Shown here in pieces: positions 36,491-48,092 of a DNA stretch of 64,000 nucleotides (positions are counted from its first letter, which is position 1; each line of letters opens with the position of its first letter). The position numbers were made by a program, and so were the translations under genes. The stretch is taken from contig CAMOSO010000072.1 in assembly GCA_946624925.1 (NCBI GenBank), forward strand, positions 9,029 to 73,028. Reading direction: 5' to 3'. The notes under the pieces are model-generated. The model searched no databases. It saw only the letters and a list, made by a program, of their open reading frames with translations, and was not told the origin of the DNA. This stretch comes from an uncultured Bacteroidales bacterium (GTDB lineage Bacteria; Bacteroidota; Bacteroidia; Bacteroidales; UBA3824).

Positions 36491-36681
36491 TAATTTTGCC
36501 ATCGGTATTGGGTGCAATAATCCCCAATGCTGACATACAATTTTATTGGAAGTGTTATGACTTTCTTCAATTGAGAACTTAGGAACTTTTCAGGATACAG
36601 AAAGCATAACAGCCAACCCGTATGGGCGTGGACTGTTATTGCCATATCGTATCCTCGGTTTCCTAAGACCTTCAATTGAGA
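36491..36681 (+). ncRNA. Candidate small RNA: -7 box, short hairpin, then a ~90-nt irregular hairpin bracketed by 12-bp direct repeats
   Basis: TAatTTTG at 36491-98. Hairpin ATTGGG/CCCAAT. Long hairpin 36578-36667 (CTTAGGAA/TTCCTAAG, AGGATAC/GTATCCT, GCATAACAG/CTGTTATTGC). Direct repeats CTTCAATTGAGA at 36565-76 and 36670-81. Confidence 0.35.
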
Positions 36682-36798
36682 TATGGAGTTGGATTGCATA
36701 ATCAACAACAATACAGTTCCACGCTCCGCGTTTATACCATCCTGAATAATTGCGTTGTCAAAATAACAATTTTGTTTAACATTAAAATATTTACAATT

Positions 36799-37479
36799 AT
36801 GAAAAAGATTTTTGTATTAATTGCTATTGTAATGCTTTCAGTTGCATCTTATGCTCAGACAACTAATGACGATTTTGGAACGTTTGAGAAGGTCGTACAA
36901 GTTGAGTTGTCTAAGGCAGCTCTGTGGAGAAACCTCAAGACGTGGGTGTCAACATCATTCAGAAGTTATAAGCATACTGTTGATGTGGAAGATCAAGAAA
37001 CGGGAACTCTAATCTTGAAGTTTTCATCAAGTCAGATTTGTACACGTGGAGTTGATGAAAACATATCAGCAACATTGAAAATTGATGTTAGAGACAATAA
37101 GTTTAGATACAAGATTTTCGATGTCAATTTTGGATTAACACCCAATAGTGTGGCGAATCCAACAACAATTCGATTCTTGCCAACGGAAGAGATAAAGAGC
37201 ATTCGTAATACGCTTGAAGCATCGGAGACGGTGCTTCGCGAGGGAACAAAGATAAACAATTCCTTTGAAGAAAGAGTTAAAAAGGCTAAGGAAGTTTCAG
37301 AGAGCACACCTCAATACAAAAGCGCAAAGGACGAGAAAAAAGGCCGTATAAGCGATGACTATCAAATTGCCAAAGCAAAATATGACATACTATTGAGTAT
37401 AGAGGTAAATTTTCATATACTCAAGGATAAGATTTCTGGGTCATTAGAAAAGTCATTAAACACGAATGATGATTTCTAA
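36799..37479 (+). CDS. DUF4468-like secreted protein with a C-terminal charged helical tail
   Basis: Signal peptide MKKIFVLIAIVMLSVASYAQ. The pattern ...LWRNLKTWVSTSF...TLILKFSS...KFRYKIFDV is typical of DUF4468. Confidence 0.55.
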   Translation: MKKIFVLIAIVMLSVASYAQTTNDDFGTFEKVVQVELSKAALWRNLKTWVSTSFRSYKHTVDVEDQETGTLILKFSSSQICTRGVDENISATLKIDVRDNKFRYKIFDVNFGLTPNSVANPTTIRFLPTEEIKSIRNTLEASETVLREGTKINNSFEERVKKAKEVSESTPQYKSAKDEKKGRISDDYQIAKAKYDILLSIEVNFHILKDKISGSLEKSLNTNDDF

Positions 37480-37492
37480 GAAATATGATATG

Positions 37493-37536
37493 CGATGCCA
37501 TTGACGTTCATTTATCTACAATGGCATCGTTTTTTG
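37493..37536 (+). terminator. Rho-independent terminator
   Basis: CGATGCCATTG / CAATGGCATCG 11-bp stem plus a T6 run. Confidence 0.75.
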
Positions 37537-37660
37537 TATAATTTCACGCTTTATGGGTTTTAATTTTAAGCCTATCCTAAAAAAAACAAATTATAGTTTG
37601 TTGTTACATTTTTTGTTTGTAACTTTGGCGTTGTTAAATAACAGTATGTTTGAAACTAAA

Positions 37661-38482
37661 ATGAAAAACATTAACTTGTTGATAAATAGTTGTTTGATTG
37701 TAGCCACTATACTATGTTCGTGTAGCGGCAACCAAACTCGTTCTCAAAACACAGCACAAAATAACAACAACGATTACTATGTTAATATGCAATTTGTGGA
37801 GGAGTTGCAAAAGACAGTTTTCTCAATTGATGAAAATACAGATTGGAATAAGCCATTGTATTCAATTGGAGAAGATAATGATACAATCGAAAAATGGACT
37901 TATCTCAGTACAGACAGCGGATTATGCGTCATTCATAAAGTGCTACCTGGCTCATTTTATAGAGAAGAAATGGACAAAACAATATATGACAAAAGTAATC
38001 GCCTTATCGCCAAAGAGATAAGTAATAAAAATGGCATTTACTTCACCATAAAATATTATTACGATGGAAACGTTAGAATCGGCAATGGGAAAAGGAACTT
38101 GGGATGCTATGACGTCGATGTAAAGGAGATTGCTTACTTTTTAGACAGTTCATTCAAATATGATACATTAACTCAATCATTTATGGGAGTTAATGATGTT
38201 TCAATGGAAATAACAGATTATCAAAAATCAAAATACGAAAAGATTGGGAACGAATACAGAATTGTTGAGAAACGTTTTTACTCAGCCCCCAATGACACAG
38301 TTTCATTTAAAATAGTAGACAAGCGCATTTACAGGTATAATTCTCAGAATCTTCTTGTAGGAGAATGCGATAGGAATGCGGGTGAATACGGGACTAAAAG
38401 ATTCTATTACAAAGATAACACTATGGAATGGGGCAATACAGGAGTGGGGGCAACGATTTATTATGACAAAAAAAATGAGTAA
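37661..38482 (+). CDS. Hypothetical lipoprotein
   Basis: Start trimmed to the lipoprotein signal MKNINLLINSCLIVATILCSC. No family recognised. Confidence 0.55.
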   Translation: MKNINLLINSCLIVATILCSCSGNQTRSQNTAQNNNNDYYVNMQFVEELQKTVFSIDENTDWNKPLYSIGEDNDTIEKWTYLSTDSGLCVIHKVLPGSFYREEMDKTIYDKSNRLIAKEISNKNGIYFTIKYYYDGNVRIGNGKRNLGCYDVDVKEIAYFLDSSFKYDTLTQSFMGVNDVSMEITDYQKSKYEKIGNEYRIVEKRFYSAPNDTVSFKIVDKRIYRYNSQNLLVGECDRNAGEYGTKRFYYKDNTMEWGNTGVGATIYYDKKNE

Positions 38483-39689
38483 CACAACAAAAATAGGAAC
38501 TGAATTCGAAAACAAGATTTTCGATATATTTTCATCCTTGCTTAACAAGGATGAAGTACCTAATGCGTCAAAAAAATATTCCAAAATATTTAAACATAAA
38601 AAATATAAGTGTTCCAATACAAGTAGAACGATTGACTTTGAAATAACAATAGAAAATTACAATCCTTATATAAATACTGACACTTGGAGTTCTTTGATTG
38701 TGATAGAATGTAAGAATTATACTAATAAGGTTGATATTTCAGATTTAGATGAGTTTAGTAAAAAAATAAGCCTAATATCGACATCGGCAATTAAAGGAAT
38801 ATTTGTAACTACTGTTGGATTTTCTCAAACTGAAATTGAACAAGCACAAAGCGAACATATTGCACTTATTGTTGCAAACCCGAGCGGTGATTTGAAATGG
38901 TTGGTTAGTAGAGATTTGAATAAATATCCTGAACAATTGTGGGAGTTCTTAATAGGTAATGCTAAAACAGATGGGCGACCTGTTGTTTATGATGATAATA
39001 GGTTCACGAATATTGAGGATATTCTTTTGAAATACGGGGCTGCGGTTTCATTCAACAATGTTATTATTCCATACATTACAGAGGATGATTTGAAAAAGAA
39101 AGTCGATGAATTGTGTTCAACGTATAAATTAGGCAATGATAAAGCCGGCGAACTATTGGTCAAAGCATTTCCTTCATATAGGGTAGATTTCGTAGATATG
39201 CCATACGGTGTATTATGCCATTTGGACCTAAAAAGTGAAGTAATTTATATTTCAAATTCAATAATTAATGATTTTCATAGAATGAATTTTACATTAGCGC
39301 ACGAATTAGGGCATCTAATTTTGCACGTTCCTCTTTTTCAAAAAATGGAAGGACAATTTGATGATTTTGAAAGACTTATCATTGCATTACCTGAGACTAA
39401 ACGGAAAAGAATGGAAATGCAAGCTGATTTATTCGCCTCATATTTATTGATCAAACAAGATGTTCTAATGAAAGAAGTCGCTCGATTGTTCACACAGTTT
39501 AGTGTTACAAAAGGCAGATTATATCTTGATAATCAAAGATGTAACATTTCATTAGTTAATTCAATTGTTAATCAACTTTCGACTATATTTAATGTATCAA
39601 AGGAGGCTATAAAAGTACGTTTGCAAAAGGAAAATTTATTGGTTGTTAGTAATAATTATAGTCCACAAAGAATGGAACGTTATTTCTAA
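38463..39689 (+). CDS. Fusion protein: N-terminal Mrr-like PD-(D/E)xK restriction-endonuclease fold plus C-terminal ImmA/IrrE (M78) zinc metallopeptidase
   Basis: GTEFENKIF...IDFEI...LIVIECKNY...GIFVTTVGFSQTEIEQAQ (Mrr_cat pattern). LAHELGHLILH (HExxH) and MQADLFASYLL (ImmA/IrrE pattern). The start overlaps the preceding lipoprotein gene by 20 nt. Confidence 0.7.
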   Translation: MTKKMSNTTKIGTEFENKIFDIFSSLLNKDEVPNASKKYSKIFKHKKYKCSNTSRTIDFEITIENYNPYINTDTWSSLIVIECKNYTNKVDISDLDEFSKKISLISTSAIKGIFVTTVGFSQTEIEQAQSEHIALIVANPSGDLKWLVSRDLNKYPEQLWEFLIGNAKTDGRPVVYDDNRFTNIEDILLKYGAAVSFNNVIIPYITEDDLKKKVDELCSTYKLGNDKAGELLVKAFPSYRVDFVDMPYGVLCHLDLKSEVIYISNSIINDFHRMNFTLAHELGHLILHVPLFQKMEGQFDDFERLIIALPETKRKRMEMQADLFASYLLIKQDVLMKEVARLFTQFSVTKGRLYLDNQRCNISLVNSIVNQLSTIFNVSKEAIKVRLQKENLLVVSNNYSPQRMERYF

Positions 39690-40231
39690 AACACTAATTC
39701 CGAATCGTCAGGAAAAACAACTATTACATCAGCCTTAAAAAAACGTTTGTCCCATACACACAACTGCACCGGCAAATCTTCGTCCGAATAGGCAGGACTG
39801 TTTGAAGCAAATTGAATTTTGTGTATTACCGGAGCACATTCCATCGCTAACATCCTAATAGCGAAAAAATTGTTCATAAATTCGGATGTGCTTTTCAATG
39901 CGTTGATTACATCTTGTGCGTAAATTGTGTTGCTTACTTTTTTGCGAGATGCGAATTCTTTTGCTAATACAATCCGCGTATCGGTATATTCTTTGCTATG
40001 GTTTGTGTCAAACATATCAAACAAATGGAAATTTTTGTCGTATTCAGTTTTGCAAATCATATAATTATTTTTGTAACGACTTTTTCCCCACCAATGCGCA
40101 CGGTCGATGCTCGAATCCCAAAAGTAGTAACCATAACCCAACCAAGCGTTTTGGTCACTACTCCAATGTGGAATTTCATCTTCGTCTGCGGTATATTCCA
40201 ATGCTTGATATATGGTACAAAAGGAAGACAT
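39686..40231 (-). CDS. ORFan, 181 aa (third gene of the SecB-like operon; candidate effector/toxin)
   Basis: No confident family. IPHWSS...GYGYYFWDSSIDRAHWWG only faintly recalls the YHGS...G.GFY...A..WA core of DUF3990/ART-like folds. Its stop overlaps the convergent stop of 38463-39689. Confidence 0.55.
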   Translation of the reverse strand: MSSFCTIYQALEYTADEDEIPHWSSDQNAWLGYGYYFWDSSIDRAHWWGKSRYKNNYMICKTEYDKNFHLFDMFDTNHSKEYTDTRIVLAKEFASRKKVSNTIYAQDVINALKSTSEFMNNFFAIRMLAMECAPVIHKIQFASNSPAYSDEDLPVQLCVWDKRFFKADVIVVFPDDSELVF

Positions 40232-40234
40232 AAT

Positions 40235-40645
40235 TTATTTTTCTGAGGTGTTTTTTATCAAAACATCTTTCAATGACGATAAATTCATCGTAGGCAAAAT
40301 GATAGGTTTATAATTGGCTTGTAAAGTCAGCGAACTTACAAATGCCCTAATATAAGGATACATAATGGCAATACTATTGGCATAAAAGAAATGCGGAATA
40401 TCGTTTATGTTATCCACCGCATCTGAAAATTTAAACAAGGAAACAACTTTTAGTGCAATAACTTCTTTGTCTTTGTCGGAATCCTTGGCTGTAAATAAAA
40501 TAGAAAGCCAATATTCTCGTTTTTTTGCATCAAATATGCCTCTCGGCTCCAATTTACCTATACTAAGCACCTTGGGTTCCGAATCCAAATCCAACATTAC
40601 TTTTGAAAAGTTGAAACTTTCCAACGAAAACATTGCTTTCTCCAT
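40235..40645 (-). CDS. SecB-like chaperone
   Basis: The pattern aligns to SecB: FSLESFNFSKVMLDLD ~ FQIQRIYTKDISFEAP; YWLSILFTAK...ALKVVSLFKF ~ YEVVLRVTVTA...LCEVQQGGIFSI; ANSIAIMYPYIRAFVSSLTLQANYKPIILPTMNLSSL ~ [35 protein letters not shown]. Confidence 0.6.
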   Translation of the reverse strand: MEKAMFSLESFNFSKVMLDLDSEPKVLSIGKLEPRGIFDAKKREYWLSILFTAKDSDKDKEVIALKVVSLFKFSDAVDNINDIPHFFYANSIAIMYPYIRAFVSSLTLQANYKPIILPTMNLSSLKDVLIKNTSEK

Positions 40646-40905
40646 TATGCTGCCAAATTATAATCTTCTTCACTAAATTCTAATTCACATTTTTCTACGG
40701 CAATAGAAACCCTATCTTCCGCCAAATCAGCAATATCCATAATCATATTACCACCAATATAATTATCCATTATATCCTGATATTCAGCGGCAGATATCGA
40801 ATTATTATCAGTTCTTTTGGCTTCTATATTACTCCACCATTGGTCAAATTCGTCGTTTGACATAGAACTGAGTTTGTTTCTTAATATATCTGCGAAAACA
40901 CCCAT
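40645..40905 (-). CDS. Small, highly acidic protein (86 aa), first gene of the SecB-like operon
   Basis: D/E-rich with no TM helix. Its stop overlaps the SecB-like start by 1 nt. A near-consensus -7 box (TAatATTG) lies upstream on the minus strand. Confidence 0.5.
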   Translation of the reverse strand: MGVFADILRNKLSSMSNDEFDQWWSNIEAKRTDNNSISAAEYQDIMDNYIGGNMIMDIADLAEDRVSIAVEKCELEFSEEDYNLAA

Positions 40906-41033
40906 ATTTAAAATTTTGTTGTGAAATTCGTTGCAATATTAATATTTTTTTTTCAAAACACAAAAGTTTTTACAAAAAAAGAGCGAAAAAACTTTATTTC
41001 TCGCCCCTTTTTTAAATTCTCAATCATTAATTT

Positions 41034-44000
41034 CTACACATACTCCTGCCAACTCTTAATCTTCAATCCATCGACTCCTACTGCGCAGAATGCCTCGATA
41101 AATGCCGTGGCAAGTCTTGCGTTGGTGATGAGCGGGATGTTGTGGTCGATTGCGCCGCGACGGATGCGGTAGCCGTTGGTGAGTTCGCGCTTGGTGTGGT
41201 TTTTCGGGATGTTGACGATGAGGTCAAACTTGTGGTCGGAAATCATCTTCATCACATTCTCGTACTTCGATACGCCGTCCTCGTCGGGCCAACCTACTGC
41301 GGTGGCTTTTACACCGTTGTCGTTGAAATACTTGGCGGTGCCTTCGGTGGCGTAAATCGAATAACCATTCTTGCAAAGTTCGCGGGCGGCGTCGAGCATC
41401 GCAGCCTTCTCCTTGGCACTTCCCGACGAAATCATAATGCCCTTCTCCTTCGACGGAATCTTGTAGCCGGTGGCGATGAGAGCGTTCAAGAGAGCCTCTT
41501 CGTAAGTGTCGCCAAGACAGCCAACTTCGCCCGTAGAACTCATATCGACGCCCAAAACCGGATCGGCATTTTGAAGCCTTGCAAACGAGAATTGACTTGC
41601 CTTAACGCCCATTCTGTCGATGTCAAACTCGCTCTTGTCGGGCTTGGTGTAAGGCGCGTCGAGCATGATGCGTGTGGCGGTCTCGATGAAATTTCTCTTC
41701 AAAACCTTGCTTACAAACGGGAACGAACGCGATGCACGGAGGTTGCACTCGATTACTTTCACGTCGCGACCCTTAGCAAGATACTGGATGTTGAACGGAC
41801 CCGAAATATTGAGTTCCTTGGCGATTGCACGGCTTATTTTCTTAATCTGACGCACCGTGCCAAAGCTGATTTGCTGAGCCGGGAACACCATCGTAGCGTC
41901 GCCGGAATGAACGCCCGCATACTCAACGTGTTCGCTGATGCCGTACTCAACGATTTCGCCGTTCTGAGCCACAGCGTCAAACTCTATCTCGTTGGTTTCC
42001 TGCATGAACTGCGAGATCACAACGGGATACTCCTTGCTGACTTCGCTTGCGAGCGCGAGAAAACGCTCCAACTCCTCGTAATCGTAGCAAACGTTCATTG
42101 CCGCGCCCGAAAGCACATACGACGGACGCACCAAAACCGGGAATCCAACCCTGTCAACAAACGCCTTCACGTCATCCATACTTGTGAGTGCACTCCATTC
42201 GGGTTGGTCGATGCCGAGTTGATCGAGCATTGCCGAGAACTTGTTGCGATTTTCGGCGCGGTCGATTGATACCGGCGATGTACCGAGAATTGGCACGCTC
42301 TGACGGTGGAGTTTCATTGCGAGGTTGTTTGGTATCTGACCGCCAACCGAAACAATCACGCCGCGAGGATTTTCCAAGTCGATGACGTCCAAAACACGCT
42401 CAAACGACAGCTCGTCAAAATACAGACGGTCGCACATGTCGTAGTCGGTGGAGACGGTTTCGGGATTATAATTAATCATAATCGACTTGTAACCGAGTTT
42501 GCGGGCGGTATTGATGGCGTTGACGCTACACCAGTCGAACTCCACAGACGAGCCAATTCTGTAAGCACCTGAGCCAAGTACGATTACGGATTTTTCATTT
42601 TGATAATAATTAATATCATAACCCTCAACGCTGTACGTCATATAGAGGTAATTGGTGAGGTCTGGATGCTCGCTTGCAACAGTCGGGATGCGCTTGACGG
42701 CGGGAAGAATGCCGAGTTTTTTGCGGTAGGCGCGCACGGCGAGATTTTCCTTCTCCATATTGCCGCCCTTGGTTTTGAGGACAAAACGTGCAATCTGGAA
42801 GTCGCTGAAACCGAGTATCTTGGCTTCGCGGAGAACGTCGGCACTCAGGTCTTCAATCTTGTTGTAAGATTCGAGTTTGTGCTTGAAATCGACGATGTTT
42901 TTGAGTTTGCCGATGAACCACGGATCGATTTTGGTGAGTTCGTAAATGCGGTCGATTGTGTAGCCATCCTCCAACGCCTGCGCAATCGCAAAAATGCGGA
43001 GGTCGGTGGGGTTGGCGAGTTCGTCGTCGAGGTTGGCAAACTTGGTGTGGTCGTTGCCAACAAAACCGTGCATACCCTGTCCAATCATCCTCAAACCCTT
43101 CTGTATCAGCTCCTCAAAGGTGCGTCCGATTGACATGATTTCGCCCACAGACTTCATCGACGAACCGATTTTGCGGCTCACTCCGGCAAATTTCGTCAAG
43201 TCCCAACGAGGGATTTTGCAGATTAAATAATCCAACGACGGAGCCACGTAAGCCGAATTTGTGGTGCCCATTTCGCCGATTTGGTCGAGGGTGTAGCCGA
43301 GGGCAATTTTGGCTGCAACAAATGCCAACGGATAGCCCGTAGCCTTTGATGCAAGGGCAGACGAGCGGCTGAGGCGGGCGTTGATTTCGATGATGCGGTA
43401 ATCGTTGGTCTCGGCGTTGAAAGCGTATTGGATGTTACATTCGCCGACGATATTGAGATGACGGACACATTTAACCGCCAATTCCTGCAACATCTTCACC
43501 TGAGCGTCTGAGAGTGAGCAAGTTGGGGCTACAACGATTGATTCGCCGGTGTGGATTCCGAGCGGGTCGAAGTTTTCCATCGACGCAACGGTGAAGCAAT
43601 GGTCGTTGGCATCACGGATTACCTCAAACTCAATTTCCTTCCAACCTTTAAGACTCTCTTCCACAAGCACTTGTGGAGCGAATGTAAATGCAGATTCGGC
43701 GATTTCGAGGAAAGTTTTTTCGTCGGGACACACGCCCGAACCCAATCCGCCCAAAGCGTATGCCGAACGAATCATCACCGGATAACCGATTTTGCGGGCA
43801 GTTGCCACCGCCTCGTCGAGACTTTCGCAAGCGTGGCTTACAGGCACTTTGAGATCCGCCTTGTTCATCTCCTTGACGAAAAGGTCGCGGTCTTCTGTGT
43901 TCATAATCGCCTCAACGCTTGTTCCGAGCACCTGAACGCCGTATTCCTTCAAAACACCAGTCTTGAAAAGTTCGGTGCCGCAGTTAAGCGCGGTCTGACC

Positions 44001-44267
44001 GCCGAAAGCCAACAGAATACCGTCGGGGCGTTCTTTTTTGATGATTTCGGTAACGAAATGCGTGTTGACGGGCAAGAAATACACCTTGTCGGCGATGCCC
44101 TCGCTTGTCTGGATAGTAGCGATATTGGGGTTGACGAGGACGGACTTGATGCCCTCTTCTCGTAATGCTTTAAGTGCCTGACTACCAGAGTAGTCAAACT
44201 CACCCGCCTGACCGATTTTCAGCGCGCCGGAGCCGAGCACAAGCACTTTTTTAAGTTTGGTGTTCAT
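41034..44267 (-). CDS. carB: Carbamoyl-phosphate synthase large subunit
   Basis: 1077 aa with duplicated ATP-grasp modules, an oligomerisation domain and a C-terminal MGS-like domain. N-terminus VLVLGSGALKIGQAGEFDYSGSQA. Confidence 0.95.
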   Translation of the reverse strand: MNTKLKKVLVLGSGALKIGQAGEFDYSGSQALKALREEGIKSVLVNPNIATIQTSEGIADKVYFLPVNTHFVTEIIKKERPDGILLAFGGQTALNCGTELFKTGVLKEYGVQVLGTSVEAIMNTEDRDLFVKEMNKADLKVPVSHACESLDEAVATARKIGYPVMIRSAYALGGLGSGVCPDEKTFLEIAESAFTFAPQVLVEESLKGWKEIEFEVIRDANDHCFTVASMENFDPLGIHTGESIVVAPTCSLSDAQVKMLQELAVKCVRHLNIVGECNIQYAFNAETNDYRIIEINARLSRSSALASKATGYPLAFVAAKIALGYTLDQIGEMGTTNSAYVAPSLDYLICKIPRWDLTKFAGVSRKIGSSMKSVGEIMSIGRTFEELIQKGLRMIGQGMHGFVGNDHTKFANLDDELANPTDLRIFAIAQALEDGYTIDRIYELTKIDPWFIGKLKNIVDFKHKLESYNKIEDLSADVLREAKILGFSDFQIARFVLKTKGGNMEKENLAVRAYRKKLGILPAVKRIPTVASEHPDLTNYLYMTYSVEGYDINYYQNEKSVIVLGSGAYRIGSSVEFDWCSVNAINTARKLGYKSIMINYNPETVSTDYDMCDRLYFDELSFERVLDVIDLENPRGVIVSVGGQIPNNLAMKLHRQSVPILGTSPVSIDRAENRNKFSAMLDQLGIDQPEWSALTSMDDVKAFVDRVGFPVLVRPSYVLSGAAMNVCYDYEELERFLALASEVSKEYPVVISQFMQETNEIEFDAVAQNGEIVEYGISEHVEYAGVHSGDATMVFPAQQISFGTVRQIKKISRAIAKELNISGPFNIQYLAKGRDVKVIECNLRASRSFPFVSKVLKRNFIETATRIMLDAPYTKPDKSEFDIDRMGVKASQFSFARLQNADPVLGVDMSSTGEVGCLGDTYEEALLNALIATGYKIPSKEKGIMISSGSAKEKAAMLDAARELCKNGYSIYATEGTAKYFNDNGVKATAVGWPDEDGVSKYENVMKMISDHKFDLIVNIPKNHTKRELTNGYRIRRGAIDHNIPLITNARLATAFIEAFCAVGVDGLKIKSWQEYV

Positions 44268-46294: not shown

Positions 46295-46388
46295 GCGGGA
46301 ATAGTTCAGTGGCAGTACAATATTCTGCCAACGGTTAGAACGCACATACGGTCTATGTGATACACGAGTTCGAATCTTGTTTCCCGCA
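46295..46388 (+). tRNA. Non-canonical tRNA-like RNA, copy 1 (tRNA-Gly-type acceptor and T arm; hairpin inserted in the D-loop; ACGGTCT loop at the anticodon position)
   Basis: Acceptor 46295-301/46381-87 (GCGGGAA/TTCCCGC). D-stem 46304-07/46338-41 (GTTC/GAAC). Inserted hairpin 46311-15/46325-29 (GGCAG/CTGCC). Stem 46343-47/46355-59 (CACAT/ATGTG). T arm 46364-68/46376-80 with a TTCGAAT loop. TAtcTTTG -7 box at 46274-81. No encoded CCA. Confidence 0.6.
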
Positions 46389-46412: not shown

Positions 46413-46541
46413 GCGGGAATAGCTTAGTGGCAGAGCATTATTCTGCCAATGGTTAGAGCACGCACTTATTATTTATTTTGAAAAACACGCTTCGTATAAA
46501 TAGTAAGTGCGGAGACACGAGTTCGAATCTTGTTTCCCGCT
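46413..46541 (+). tRNA. Non-canonical tRNA-like RNA, copy 2 (same scaffold; anticodon-position arm extended to a 16-bp helix with a 19-nt loop)
   Basis: Acceptor 46413-19/46534-40. D-stem GCTT 46422-25 / GAGC 46456-59. Inserted hairpin 46429-34/46442-47. Long arm 46461-76/46496-511 (CGCAC+TTATTATTTAT / ATAAATAGTAA+GTGCG). T arm 46517-33. Discriminator T. Confidence 0.6.
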
Positions 46542-46622: not shown

Positions 46623-47717
46623 TCAAAACCATTTCTCCAAACCTCTTACACCTTCCCTCACTTCATCAATAATATCCTTGCATCGTTTTTCAGAAATTTT
46701 GATGTTTTTGCCGACGAAAATCATATCTGCGTCGTTGGGCAAACCGTTGAAATTCACAGTTGTAGCGTGTTCGCCGAGGGTGTTGTCGTTTGTGAGGTCG
46801 TAGGCGGGCGAAAGATGCCAACGACCGTTTTTATAAATAAATGAAAAATTGCGGGCGTGGTCATCTAAATTTTTGGCAATAACGTTGAAAGCCATTCTAC
46901 GAAATTGTTGTTCGACCTCTTGCGAACTTTGTGTCAGATAGCCTGTAAGTTGCAAAAGCGAGTTGTAATCCATTTTAGGCGGGGTGATTGGCTCGTTCAA
47001 AAGTCCACTTGCCGTAACAACGTGCAGCCGTTCCCCGTTTGGTAAAATGTCAAAACGCTTTACCCCGAAATATTTGCCATCAAATAGTTTAAAATCAGGG
47101 ACATCGATTCCACATTTGCGTGCTGCAAGATTATAAGCATATTCGATTTCACCGATGTCTTTGCGGTCGTAAATATGACGAAATTTCACAATCCAATGCC
47201 CGTCTGCATCGGTGTAAAGGCATTTTGGACGTGCGCCACCTGAATTACCGCTCTTGTTGAATAACATTCCGGCGGCAGAATCGGTCTTTTCGGAAAGAAC
47301 ATCGTTGATAATCTGTTGCATTTGGTCAAAAGAACCGTCAAAACTGTCGTTAATTACCTTGTTTTCAGGTATATAACACAACGCCCCAAGACCACCACTT
47401 CCCACAAGACTTAGTTTTTGCACAGGTGTAAGCGATTGATAATCAATGCTATTCTTTTTTAACACCTTGTTTATGAGATATTCGCCGTAACCTCCGGGCA
47501 ATGAATCTTCAAAAACGCCGAAATTGCCGTTAAAAGGTTGATAATCAGCAGTAAAAATACCTGATTTTAACGGCAGTTTTAATGGCGAAATCGAAAAGCC
47601 GTCAACAAGCCACTGTTTGTCGTACTCAAAACTGCAAACACCGCGCTTTCTGCAAGTAAGTGTACCAACTTTTTTGCCGTGATACAACACGTTTACTAAC
47701 AACAACTTATCTATCAT
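46623..47717 (-). CDS. hipA: HipA-family serine/threonine kinase toxin
   Basis: HipA N-terminal coupling domain (VGTLT...FEYD..W) and C-terminal kinase motifs (SGGARPKC, NLDDHARNFSFIY, LSPAYDL). Overlaps the upstream HTH gene by 4 nt. Confidence 0.85.
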   Translation of the reverse strand: MIDKLLLVNVLYHGKKVGTLTCRKRGVCSFEYDKQWLVDGFSISPLKLPLKSGIFTADYQPFNGNFGVFEDSLPGGYGEYLINKVLKKNSIDYQSLTPVQKLSLVGSGGLGALCYIPENKVINDSFDGSFDQMQQIINDVLSEKTDSAAGMLFNKSGNSGGARPKCLYTDADGHWIVKFRHIYDRKDIGEIEYAYNLAARKCGIDVPDFKLFDGKYFGVKRFDILPNGERLHVVTASGLLNEPITPPKMDYNSLLQLTGYLTQSSQEVEQQFRRMAFNVIAKNLDDHARNFSFIYKNGRWHLSPAYDLTNDNTLGEHATTVNFNGLPNDADMIFVGKNIKISEKRCKDIIDEVREGVRGLEKWF

Positions 47718-48028
47718 ACGCCCCTCCTTCTTGTGCTGTTTTTGTTGATTTCCAAAAGTTCTTCCATTGTGTCGTACTTAGGTTCGGAGAGAAGGTTCAT
47801 AATCTCTTCGGAATAGCCTAACGCCTTGGCTATCTTTACGAAAGATTCGAGCGAGATGGAGTGTTTCAATTCAAAACGCTGAATTGTTGGTGCCGGCACG
47901 CCGCTCATTTGCGCAAGAGTTTTGGTGGAGAATTTCTTCTCCAATCGCCTTGCTTTCAGGTTTTCAGCAAGACGCCGCATCGTTACCTCCAATGGGTACG
48001 GGTCAAAAACGTATTTGTTAAATTCCAT
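47714..48028 (-). CDS. XRE-family HTH antitoxin (HipB-like)
   Basis: HTH segment FSTKTLAQMSGVPAPTIQRFELKHSISLESFVKIAKALG. Start trimmed to the ATG (MEFNKY). TAccTTTG -7 box at 48055-62 on the minus strand. Confidence 0.75.
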   Translation of the reverse strand: MEFNKYVFDPYPLEVTMRRLAENLKARRLEKKFSTKTLAQMSGVPAPTIQRFELKHSISLESFVKIAKALGYSEEIMNLLSEPKYDTMEELLEINKNSTRRRGV

Positions 48029-48092
48029 AATCAAATAGTGTTTTGTTGATGTAGCAAAGGTAACATATTTCCTTCTAATCTCAAAATTTTAC

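Follow-up and report, generated by a model that had tools for sequence, protein, structure and literature searches.

What kind of system is encoded by three short, tightly packed genes that are built around a SecB-like chaperone and lie next to carB in the genome of an uncultured Bacteroidales bacterium? The genes are located on the minus strand of contig CAMOSO010000072.1 (assembly GCA_946624925.1), within a stretch of 64,000 nucleotides that was analysed as a whole and is called the window below. The window is identical to contig DGIK01000073.1 of assembly GCA_002393195.1, and the closest named relatives are Bacteroidales metagenome-assembled genomes (MAGs). The original prediction, made from the letters alone, had proposed a toxin-antitoxin-chaperone (TAC) or defence module around a stand-alone SecB homologue, in which the gene order and both partners would be new. 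From the analyses described here, we consider it probable, at roughly 0.8, that the operon is a Bacteroidales abortive-infection system of the CmdTAC family, arranged in the order antitoxin-chaperone-toxin (A-C-T). This family was formerly called PD-T4-9 and has since been renamed CmdTAC (PMC9519451, PMC11618068). Membership of the operon in the family is in itself very likely, and each mechanistic detail, taken by analogy, would rank lower than membership. The three genes are as follows.

40645..40905, minus strand, cmdA-like gene for an acidic putative antitoxin of 86 amino acids (aa) (open reading frame, ORF)
40235..40645, minus strand, cmdC-like gene for a SecB-like chaperone of 136 aa (PADLOC PD-T4-9_C, Pfam SecB)
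39686..40231, minus strand, cmdT-like gene for a toxin of 181 aa with an ADP-ribosyltransferase (ART) fold (PADLOC PD-T4-9_A, AF2 and Foldseek)

The strand, sizes and spacing first described for these ORFs agreed exactly with the re-read coordinates. The 86-aa gene directly precedes the chaperone gene, and their translation is coupled through a TAATG junction, in which the chaperone start shares 1 nt with the stop of the 86-aa gene. The chaperone gene and the toxin gene are separated by a 3-nt gap, and the operon totals 1220 bp.

Results

Family assignment and fold of the toxin

The 181-aa protein matched the PADLOC model PD-T4-9_A (PDLC04068) with an E-value of 5.5e-33 over residues 6-176 of 181, and a second A sub-model (PDLC04069) at 1.3e-9. 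For comparison with an Escherichia coli system, the homologue in strain N2250 was located with a published Y41A primer as the blastn query.

NZ_CP189474.1, 3125353-3126566, cmdTAC homologue of E. coli N2250 (locus L125), order toxin-antitoxin-chaperone (T-A-C), 1214 bp

This operon is exactly as long as that of ECOR22 (1214 bp), and its toxin, antitoxin and chaperone, used as controls, matched the A, B and C models of PD-T4-9 at 4.4e-97, 3e-38 and 7.2e-61, respectively. Alignment of the window toxin family profile with the N2250 CmdT homologue by hhalign gave a probability of 99.4% and an E-value of 1.2e-21 over 172 columns, about 20% of which were identical.

A profile search placed the toxin in a family of 662 representative clusters at 50% identity, with relatives encoded in 267 GTDB species; wherever a name was returned for a relative, it was "hypothetical protein". 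The protein had been regarded as an ORFan, and this view is contradicted by the number of clusters and by the full-length PD-T4-9_A match. Likewise, the claim that both partners belong to no known family was wrong for the toxin, which is a member of the CmdT family. Loci were fetched for the best 80 of the 267 GTDB species, together with 32 relatives that sit on viral contigs and 12 metagenomic ones, giving 124 loci, most of them from Bacteroidota. No Pfam family, ART families included, matched any of 134 members of the toxin family, and a sequence-profile search of the PDB with the family returned nothing meaningful (CpxP at 0.008). The window toxin and two distant toxins of T-A-C loci gave no tblastn match in phage and plasmid collections, and a blastn search of E. 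coli genomes with distant T-A-C loci as queries was also negative.

The structure of the toxin was predicted with AF2. An alignment of six sequences yielded an unusable model, with a predicted local distance difference test score (pLDDT) of 36.7, and the alignment of 134 sequences was used instead, which gave a pLDDT of 93.5 and a predicted template modelling score of 0.87. When this model was searched against the PDB with Foldseek, 40 of the 41 top matches were ART catalytic domains of PARP1, PARP2 or tankyrase. Against BFVD, large polyvalent phage proteins were found at E-values of 1.2e-5 and 4.8e-5 with a probability of 1.00, and an ART-PolyVal-like protein at 9e-3. These results place the 181-aa protein in the CmdT family and show that its fold is ART-like.

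Active site of the toxin

The Y41A mutagenic primers for ECOR22 CmdT are listed in the supplement of the Nature paper (PMC11618068). The reverse complement of primer CV110 translates to ...TQGY[A]FWTDDPYW, and therefore Y41 is the second Tyr of GYYFW. In the alignment, this residue corresponds to Y36 of the window toxin (GYGYYFW), a Tyr that is invariant in all 134 family sequences. Q156 is kept in 133 of the 134, W48 and G49 are invariant, and the aromatic motif GYYFW...WWG is common to the window toxin family and the E. coli enzyme. Position 9, which aligns with His11 of the N2250 homologue, is Gln in 118 members, including the window toxin, and His in the other 16. The residues Q9, Y36 and Q156 are thus the putative binding site for nicotinamide adenine dinucleotide (NAD) in the window toxin, as judged from the alignment. 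The triad is Q-Y-Q in 106 of 123 fetched loci and H-Y-Q in E. coli, so that the published H-Y-[E,D,Q] triad fails for most of the fetched relatives.

The Gln-for-His exchange raises the alternative that the protein is a diverged ART toxin in which mRNA ADP-ribosylation is altered or abolished, and which may act as an NADase, on another substrate (DNA, tRNA or protein), or through non-catalytic toxicity. The difference between Q9-Y36-Q156 and H-Y-Q and the identity of only about 20% to the E. coli toxin over aligned columns are in line with such divergence, and substrates are known to differ widely among ART-fold enzymes (PMC11618068). However, the strict restriction of position 9 to Gln or His in the 134 members, together with the invariant Tyr and the near-invariant third-position Gln, is a sign of purifying selection for an intact NAD site, and the GYYFW...WWG motif has been retained in both the E. 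coli enzyme and the window toxin. We regard this alternative as rather improbable.

The SecB-like chaperone

The 136-aa protein matched PADLOC PD-T4-9_C (PDLC04072) at 2e-47 over residues 1-135 of 136. Its SecB pattern, recognised in the original prediction, was borne out by Pfam SecB (2.1e-7, 31.3 bits against a gathering cut-off of 26). A profile of six sequences fell short of the SecB structures in the PDB, and one built from 40 relatives reached them over nearly the full length (1FX3 and 1OZB at 5.5e-6, 1QYN at 3.3e-5). The protein is 27% identical to the CmdC homologue of E. coli N2250 (E 3e-13). With the PADLOC matches of the toxin and the chaperone (5.5e-33 and 2e-47), the proposal of a TAC or defence module around a stand-alone SecB homologue has held up well.

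Because SecB similarity is recognised by both Pfam and NCBIfam, the gene could in principle encode a housekeeping export chaperone that happens to lie beside two unrelated small genes. The NCBIfam cut-offs for housekeeping SecB equivalogs are nevertheless all far above the scores obtained (24.8 bits at best against 143; for TIGR00809, 22.4 bits against 102.8), the defence-specific PD-T4-9_C model is by far the best match, and the three genes are conserved together as a unit in about 100 loci of varied genomic context. This explanation is effectively refuted. From these scores, which lie far below the NCBIfam cut-offs, the 136-aa protein is assigned as a specialised CmdC-type SecB-like chaperone and not as an export chaperone.

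The small acidic protein

The published CmdA, a small antitoxin, has helices at its N-terminus and a disordered C-terminal part that ends in the ClpXP signal LAA (PMC11618068); this degron acts in a ClpXP-dependent manner (PMC11618068). The 86-aa protein of the window had been described as very acidic with the tail EFSEEDYNLAA, and this was confirmed: the isoelectric point is 4.05, with 19 Asp or Glu against 6 Lys or Arg, and the C-terminus reads ...CELEFSEEDYNLAA. A putative helical segment at the N-terminus is followed by a C-terminal extension that contains Y42, Y49, F77 and Y82 and the final NLAA. The tail resembles that of the E. coli N2250 CmdA homologue, ...DFFSDDTELDLAA, in being acidic and aromatic and in ending with LAA.

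The protein is 85% identical in close relatives and can still be aligned to small ORFs beside toxins of about 30% identity. A hidden Markov model (HMM) of the small protein was seeded with six homologues and iterated over all the fetched loci. Exactly one match per locus was obtained in 110 of the 124, always adjoining the chaperone or toxin gene, and the matches include 98 A-C-T and 9 T-A-C loci. Since one HMM finds both arrangements, the 86-aa family is the middle component of the T-A-C operons of this family. Among 94 unique proteins of the small family, 30 end in AA, and 58 of the 64 others have at least two aromatic residues within the last ten. Judged by their composition, these aromatic-rich tails fit the idea of aromatic-anchored chaperone-addiction (ChAD) elements. 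In the window protein, the context E-F77-S fits the ChAD pattern of a polar, an aromatic and a small residue, and D-Y82-N meets only the first half of the aromatic pattern.

The antitoxin role of the 86-aa protein is putative, and is suggested by its position, size, composition, LAA tail and co-occurrence with the family. The roles first proposed, with the 86-aa protein as chaperone client or antitoxin and the 181-aa protein as effector, also fit.

Co-conservation, gene order and distribution

The arrangement of a small ORF, a SecB-like gene and a gene for a relative of the 181-aa protein, A-C-T as in the window, was found in 98 of the 124 fetched loci, and T-A-C in 9; the co-occurrence of the trio across genomes was thereby confirmed. 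In the great majority of the GTDB, viral and metagenomic loci, the immediate upstream neighbour of the toxin gene is the chaperone gene, and the T-A-C minority includes Bacteroidota (Fibrella, Chitinophaga and Cytophagales). The genes of the trio are clearly not together by chance, being co-conserved as a unit in varied contexts. A-C-T is the usual form of this subfamily and not a peculiarity of the window locus. The gene order does differ from the T-A-C model, as had been noted, but it is common among the fetched relatives.

Two rules have been published for calling homologues. The first took CmdT, then a downstream ORF, then SecB (PMC9519451), an order that the window operon does not have. 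The second takes a SecB-like chaperone within two genes of the toxin and ignores the order (PMC11618068); the window operon, with its chaperone gene 3 nt from the toxin gene, falls under this rule. Targeted searches of the CmdTAC papers revealed no mention of Bacteroidota or of the A-C-T order.

The carB junction and transcription

The boundary between the operon and carB contains the following features.

41034..44267, minus strand, carB (stop codon at 41034)
40973..41014, minus strand, terminator-like hairpin that separates carB from the operon (RNA fold)
40934..40964, minus strand, Bacteroidetes-type promoter-like motif, inferred only (sequence read by eye)

The AT-rich island described earlier was evident, as the G+C content is 0.32-0.37 across 36-41 kb and about 0.50-0.52 in the adjoining carB. 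Immediately 3' of the carB stop, an 18-bp stem lies between A and U runs. The fold of 40968-41020 on the minus strand has a free energy of -19.6 kcal/mol and a z-score of -5.79, which was equalled by none of 200 shuffles; a simple terminator scan did not pick up this hairpin at 40973..41014. Downstream of it, TTTG (40964-40961), a spacer of 19 nt and TAATATTG (40941-40934) were read, the end of which is 28 nt 5' of the ATG at 40905. The consensus for Bacteroides promoters is TTTG at -33 and TAnnTTTG at -7; the motif deviates from the latter at one position. A sigma-70 promoter scan was uninformative here, the sigma-70 model not being applicable to Bacteroidota. Because the terminator-like hairpin of carB is followed by the TTTG-N19-TAATATTG motif, a promoter belonging to the trio itself, as had been suggested, is plausible.

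Comparison with known TAC systems

The window operon was compared with CmdTAC of E. coli (ECOR22 and N2250). Both consist of three short genes, 1220 bp in the window and 1214 bp in E. coli, and both combine an ART-fold toxin, having the GYYFW motif with the catalytic Tyr and the Gln of the (I/V)Q(I/L)C strand, with a SecB-like chaperone of 129-136 aa and a small acidic partner of 77-86 aa that has an acidic and aromatic end with LAA. Both are located among mobile or defence genes. On the other hand, the order is A-C-T in the window and T-A-C in E. coli, and the triad begins with Gln in the former and with His in the latter. The window antitoxin has no detectable similarity to CmdA and is missed by the PADLOC B model, and the PADLOC sub-models that fit are 04068 and 04072 for the window and 04069 and 04071 for E. 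coli. The settings also differ, with a chromosomal island by carB in the window and a P2-like prophage hotspot in E. coli, where the N2250 operon lies between replication endonuclease and DinI genes and the portal gene. In the N2250 annotation, the toxin and antitoxin are hypothetical and the chaperone is called 'protein-export chaperone SecB', a name that suggests a housekeeping role and is misleading for a chaperone of a defence system.

TAC logic is shared with CmdTAC of E. coli O112ab:H26 and HigBAC of E. coli NT1F31. In these systems, the antitoxin has a disordered C-terminal ChAD, the aromatic residues of which are bound by a SecB-type chaperone, and a structural protein of the phage is a competitor for the binding pockets (bioRxiv 10.1101/2024.02.24.581848). 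HigBAC has the RNase toxin HigB and a ChAD of 96 residues, whereas the window has an ART toxin and an antitoxin of 86 aa in all. In HigB-HigA-SecB(TA) of Mycobacterium tuberculosis (Rv1955-Rv1957), the classical TAC, the SecB homologue stabilises a ChAD antitoxin against ClpXP (bioRxiv 10.1101/2024.02.24.581848). A stand-alone SecB homologue dedicated to an antitoxin would be common to this system and, by analogy, to the window operon; the toxin and antitoxin families are unrelated, and the mycobacterial order is T-A-C. Neither window partner had a match to the HigBA, MqsRA or HicAB families in Pfam, NCBIfam or PADLOC, in agreement with the initial reading that they lie outside these families. 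The profile of the window chaperone scored an E-value of 0.91 with Rv1957 (5MTW), compared with 5.5e-6 for proteobacterial SecB structures. As for other ARTs, the toxin model is structurally closest to the ART-PolyVal domains and to the ARTs of the PARP/diphtheria-toxin clade, but these have no relationship to it at the sequence level and lie outside toxin-antitoxin (TA) modules.

Genomic neighbourhood

The genes around the operon and carB are listed below.

36676..38482, plus strand, two genes of the AT-rich island, for a DUF4468 protein and a 309-aa protein
38475..39689 (longest ORF from 38376), plus strand, Mrr_cat-M78/ImmA-IrrE fusion gene, 404-437 aa
44446..46173, minus strand, ATPase of the OLD family, AriA/GajA-like (PADLOC AriA 1.9e-38, Old 1e-28, GajA 1.3e-23)
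46295..46388, plus strand, tRNA-like gene 1, 94 nt (Rfam tRNA 41.8 bits; ARAGORN tRNA-Trp(CCA))
46413..46541, plus strand, tRNA-like gene 2, 129 nt (Rfam tRNA 43.6 bits)
46623..47717, minus strand, HipA-like kinase (Couple_hipA and HipA_C domains in the matching locus L001)
47714..48034, minus strand, HTH_3 gene, upstream of the HipA-like gene and overlapping it

The fusion gene runs towards the toxin gene, and the ends of the two share 4 nt. Its product contains an Mrr_cat restriction endonuclease domain (2.1e-7) and an M78/ImmA-IrrE metallopeptidase domain (1.4e-9), and in PADLOC it gave capP-like (1.2e-14) and RmrA-like matches. This gene is probably an independent single-gene defence candidate. 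We considered it as a component of the CmdTAC module and rejected it, because Lamassu-like genes take its place in loci with 73%-identical homologues. In these two Bacteroidales MAG loci (L009:1821-6021 and L010:1754-6074), the gene for the 73%-identical CmdT homologue likewise lies directly after carB, and downstream of it are Lamassu-like genes (LmuB_C and MC3) and a gene for a SocA_Panacea protein. The presence of Lamassu-like genes there indicates that the flank of the CmdTAC module that faces away from carB is a variable defence hotspot. The DUF4468 protein (1.3e-6) has a signal-peptide-like N-terminus, the 309-aa protein had no family match in Pfam or PADLOC, and their genes are conserved alongside the Mrr_cat-M78 gene in L001-L004.

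The gene for the OLD-like ATPase flanks the other side of carB in a stretch of low G+C content (0.30-0.38), and no partner gene was identified for it. Between it and the HipA-like kinase gene lies the tandem pair of tRNA-like genes, both of abnormal length, which have acceptor and T-arm sequences in common and differ in their long variable-arm inserts; a Trp anticodon with a long variable arm is unusual for a tRNA. The HipA-like and HTH_3 genes look like a HipBA-type TA pair. With the Mrr_cat-M78 fusion, the OLD-like ATPase, the HipA/HTH genes and the Lamassu-like replacement nearby, the CmdTAC locus lies in a defence-rich and variable neighbourhood.

This setting bears on whether the module senses phage at all. 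A genuine CmdTAC-type module could instead serve mainly for addiction, stabilising the AT-rich island by carB, or act as a stress-responsive TA system. The early work on TAC systems had no connection with phage, M. tuberculosis HigBA-SecB being one example (bioRxiv 10.1101/2024.02.24.581848), the module lies within a horizontally acquired AT-rich segment, and a phage trigger would be assigned here by analogy. Yet both experimentally tested CmdTAC systems protect against phage, and defence-type neighbours together with relatives on viral contigs form the pattern of defence islands and prophage hotspots. A role in addiction or stress in place of phage defence is therefore unlikely.

Discussion

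The assignment of the operon as an abortive-infection system of the CmdTAC family has to be set against several observations that weigh against it. The E. coli reference proteins are distant, with only about 20% identical columns for the toxin and 27% identity for the chaperone. The Foldseek matches of the toxin model in the PDB are weak (best E-value 0.043, range 0.04-1, template modelling scores 0.35-0.45); the published structural match of CmdT to exotoxin A is similarly loose, with a root-mean-square deviation of 6.9 Å (PMC11618068). The A-C-T order is unlike that of every experimentally studied TAC, and the triad Q9-Y36-Q156 carries Gln where the published His sits. In some PARPs, loss of this His accompanies loss of activity. 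The 86-aa protein gave no match to PADLOC PD-T4-9_B even at E≤10, PADLOC having only one B model, of the E. coli type. BLAST of the protein against E. coli CmdA found nothing, and the small-protein family, compared with the same CmdA by hhalign, gave a probability of 10%. Finally, toxicity, ADP-ribosylation, the RNA target, ClpXP dependence, the trigger and defence are extrapolated from the E. coli work.

Because of the hhalign probability of 10% and the lack of a B match, no homology is claimed between the 86-aa protein and CmdA. When the A proteins of seven other relatives were compared with the PADLOC B model, only one matched, at 0.02, and CmdA is described by the authors as highly variable and frequently unannotated (PMC9519451, PMC11618068). 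The gene order is not disqualifying for membership, since it varies within the HMM-defined family. The module belongs to a published defence family that PADLOC already models, and it is no new kind of system. The new features are that the operon is permuted, that Gln occupies the place of the published His and that the antitoxin family has not been modelled, and these are properties of a large, uncharacterised subfamily.

By analogy with the work in E. coli (PMC11618068, bioRxiv 10.1101/2024.02.24.581848), the system may function as follows. In an uninfected cell, a CmdC tetramer would hold the C-terminal chaperone-addiction tail of CmdA and shield the LAA degron from ClpXP, and CmdA would help to fold CmdT and keep it neutralised. 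Upon infection, an abundant new phage structural protein, which is the capsid protein in E. coli, would compete for CmdC, and CmdA released from the chaperone would be degraded by ClpXP. CmdT could then use NAD+ to ADP-ribosylate single-stranded mRNA, so that translation and phage production would halt; the site modified by the E. coli enzyme is N6 of adenine. The coupling of A and C through TAATG, with T translated last, would favour formation of the neutralising complex before the toxin.

More tentatively, the A-C-T, Q-Y-Q form might be a distinct, uncharacterised CmdTAC subtype that extends throughout the Bacteroidota, with an antitoxin family of its own whose tails either resemble the ssrA degron (...Y-x-LAA) or have an aromatic S[DG]FF motif at the end. 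We put this forward as a possibility that is doubtful at present. In such a subtype, the Gln-for-His exchange may shift the specificity for RNA or nucleotide, and the chaperone may be a sensor for structural proteins of phages that infect gut Bacteroidales, e.g., crAss-like phages.

The principle of CmdTAC was described only recently: the chaperone senses a phage capsid protein, and the ART toxin modifies mRNA and blocks translation (PMC11618068). The window locus and its relatives show how broadly the family occurs in Bacteroidota, gut and rumen Bacteroidales among them, for the most part in the permuted A-C-T form. This is useful for annotation, as the toxin has no Pfam family, the toxin and the antitoxin are named hypothetical in every case with a source name, and order-dependent rules would miss such loci; the antitoxin family lies outside the current defence-finder models. 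It also helps in the choice of a Bacteroides model for tests of the mechanism. If a distinct Bacteroidota subtype does exist, it would provide an abortive-infection system that senses capsids and is amenable to study in one of the dominant phyla of the gut.

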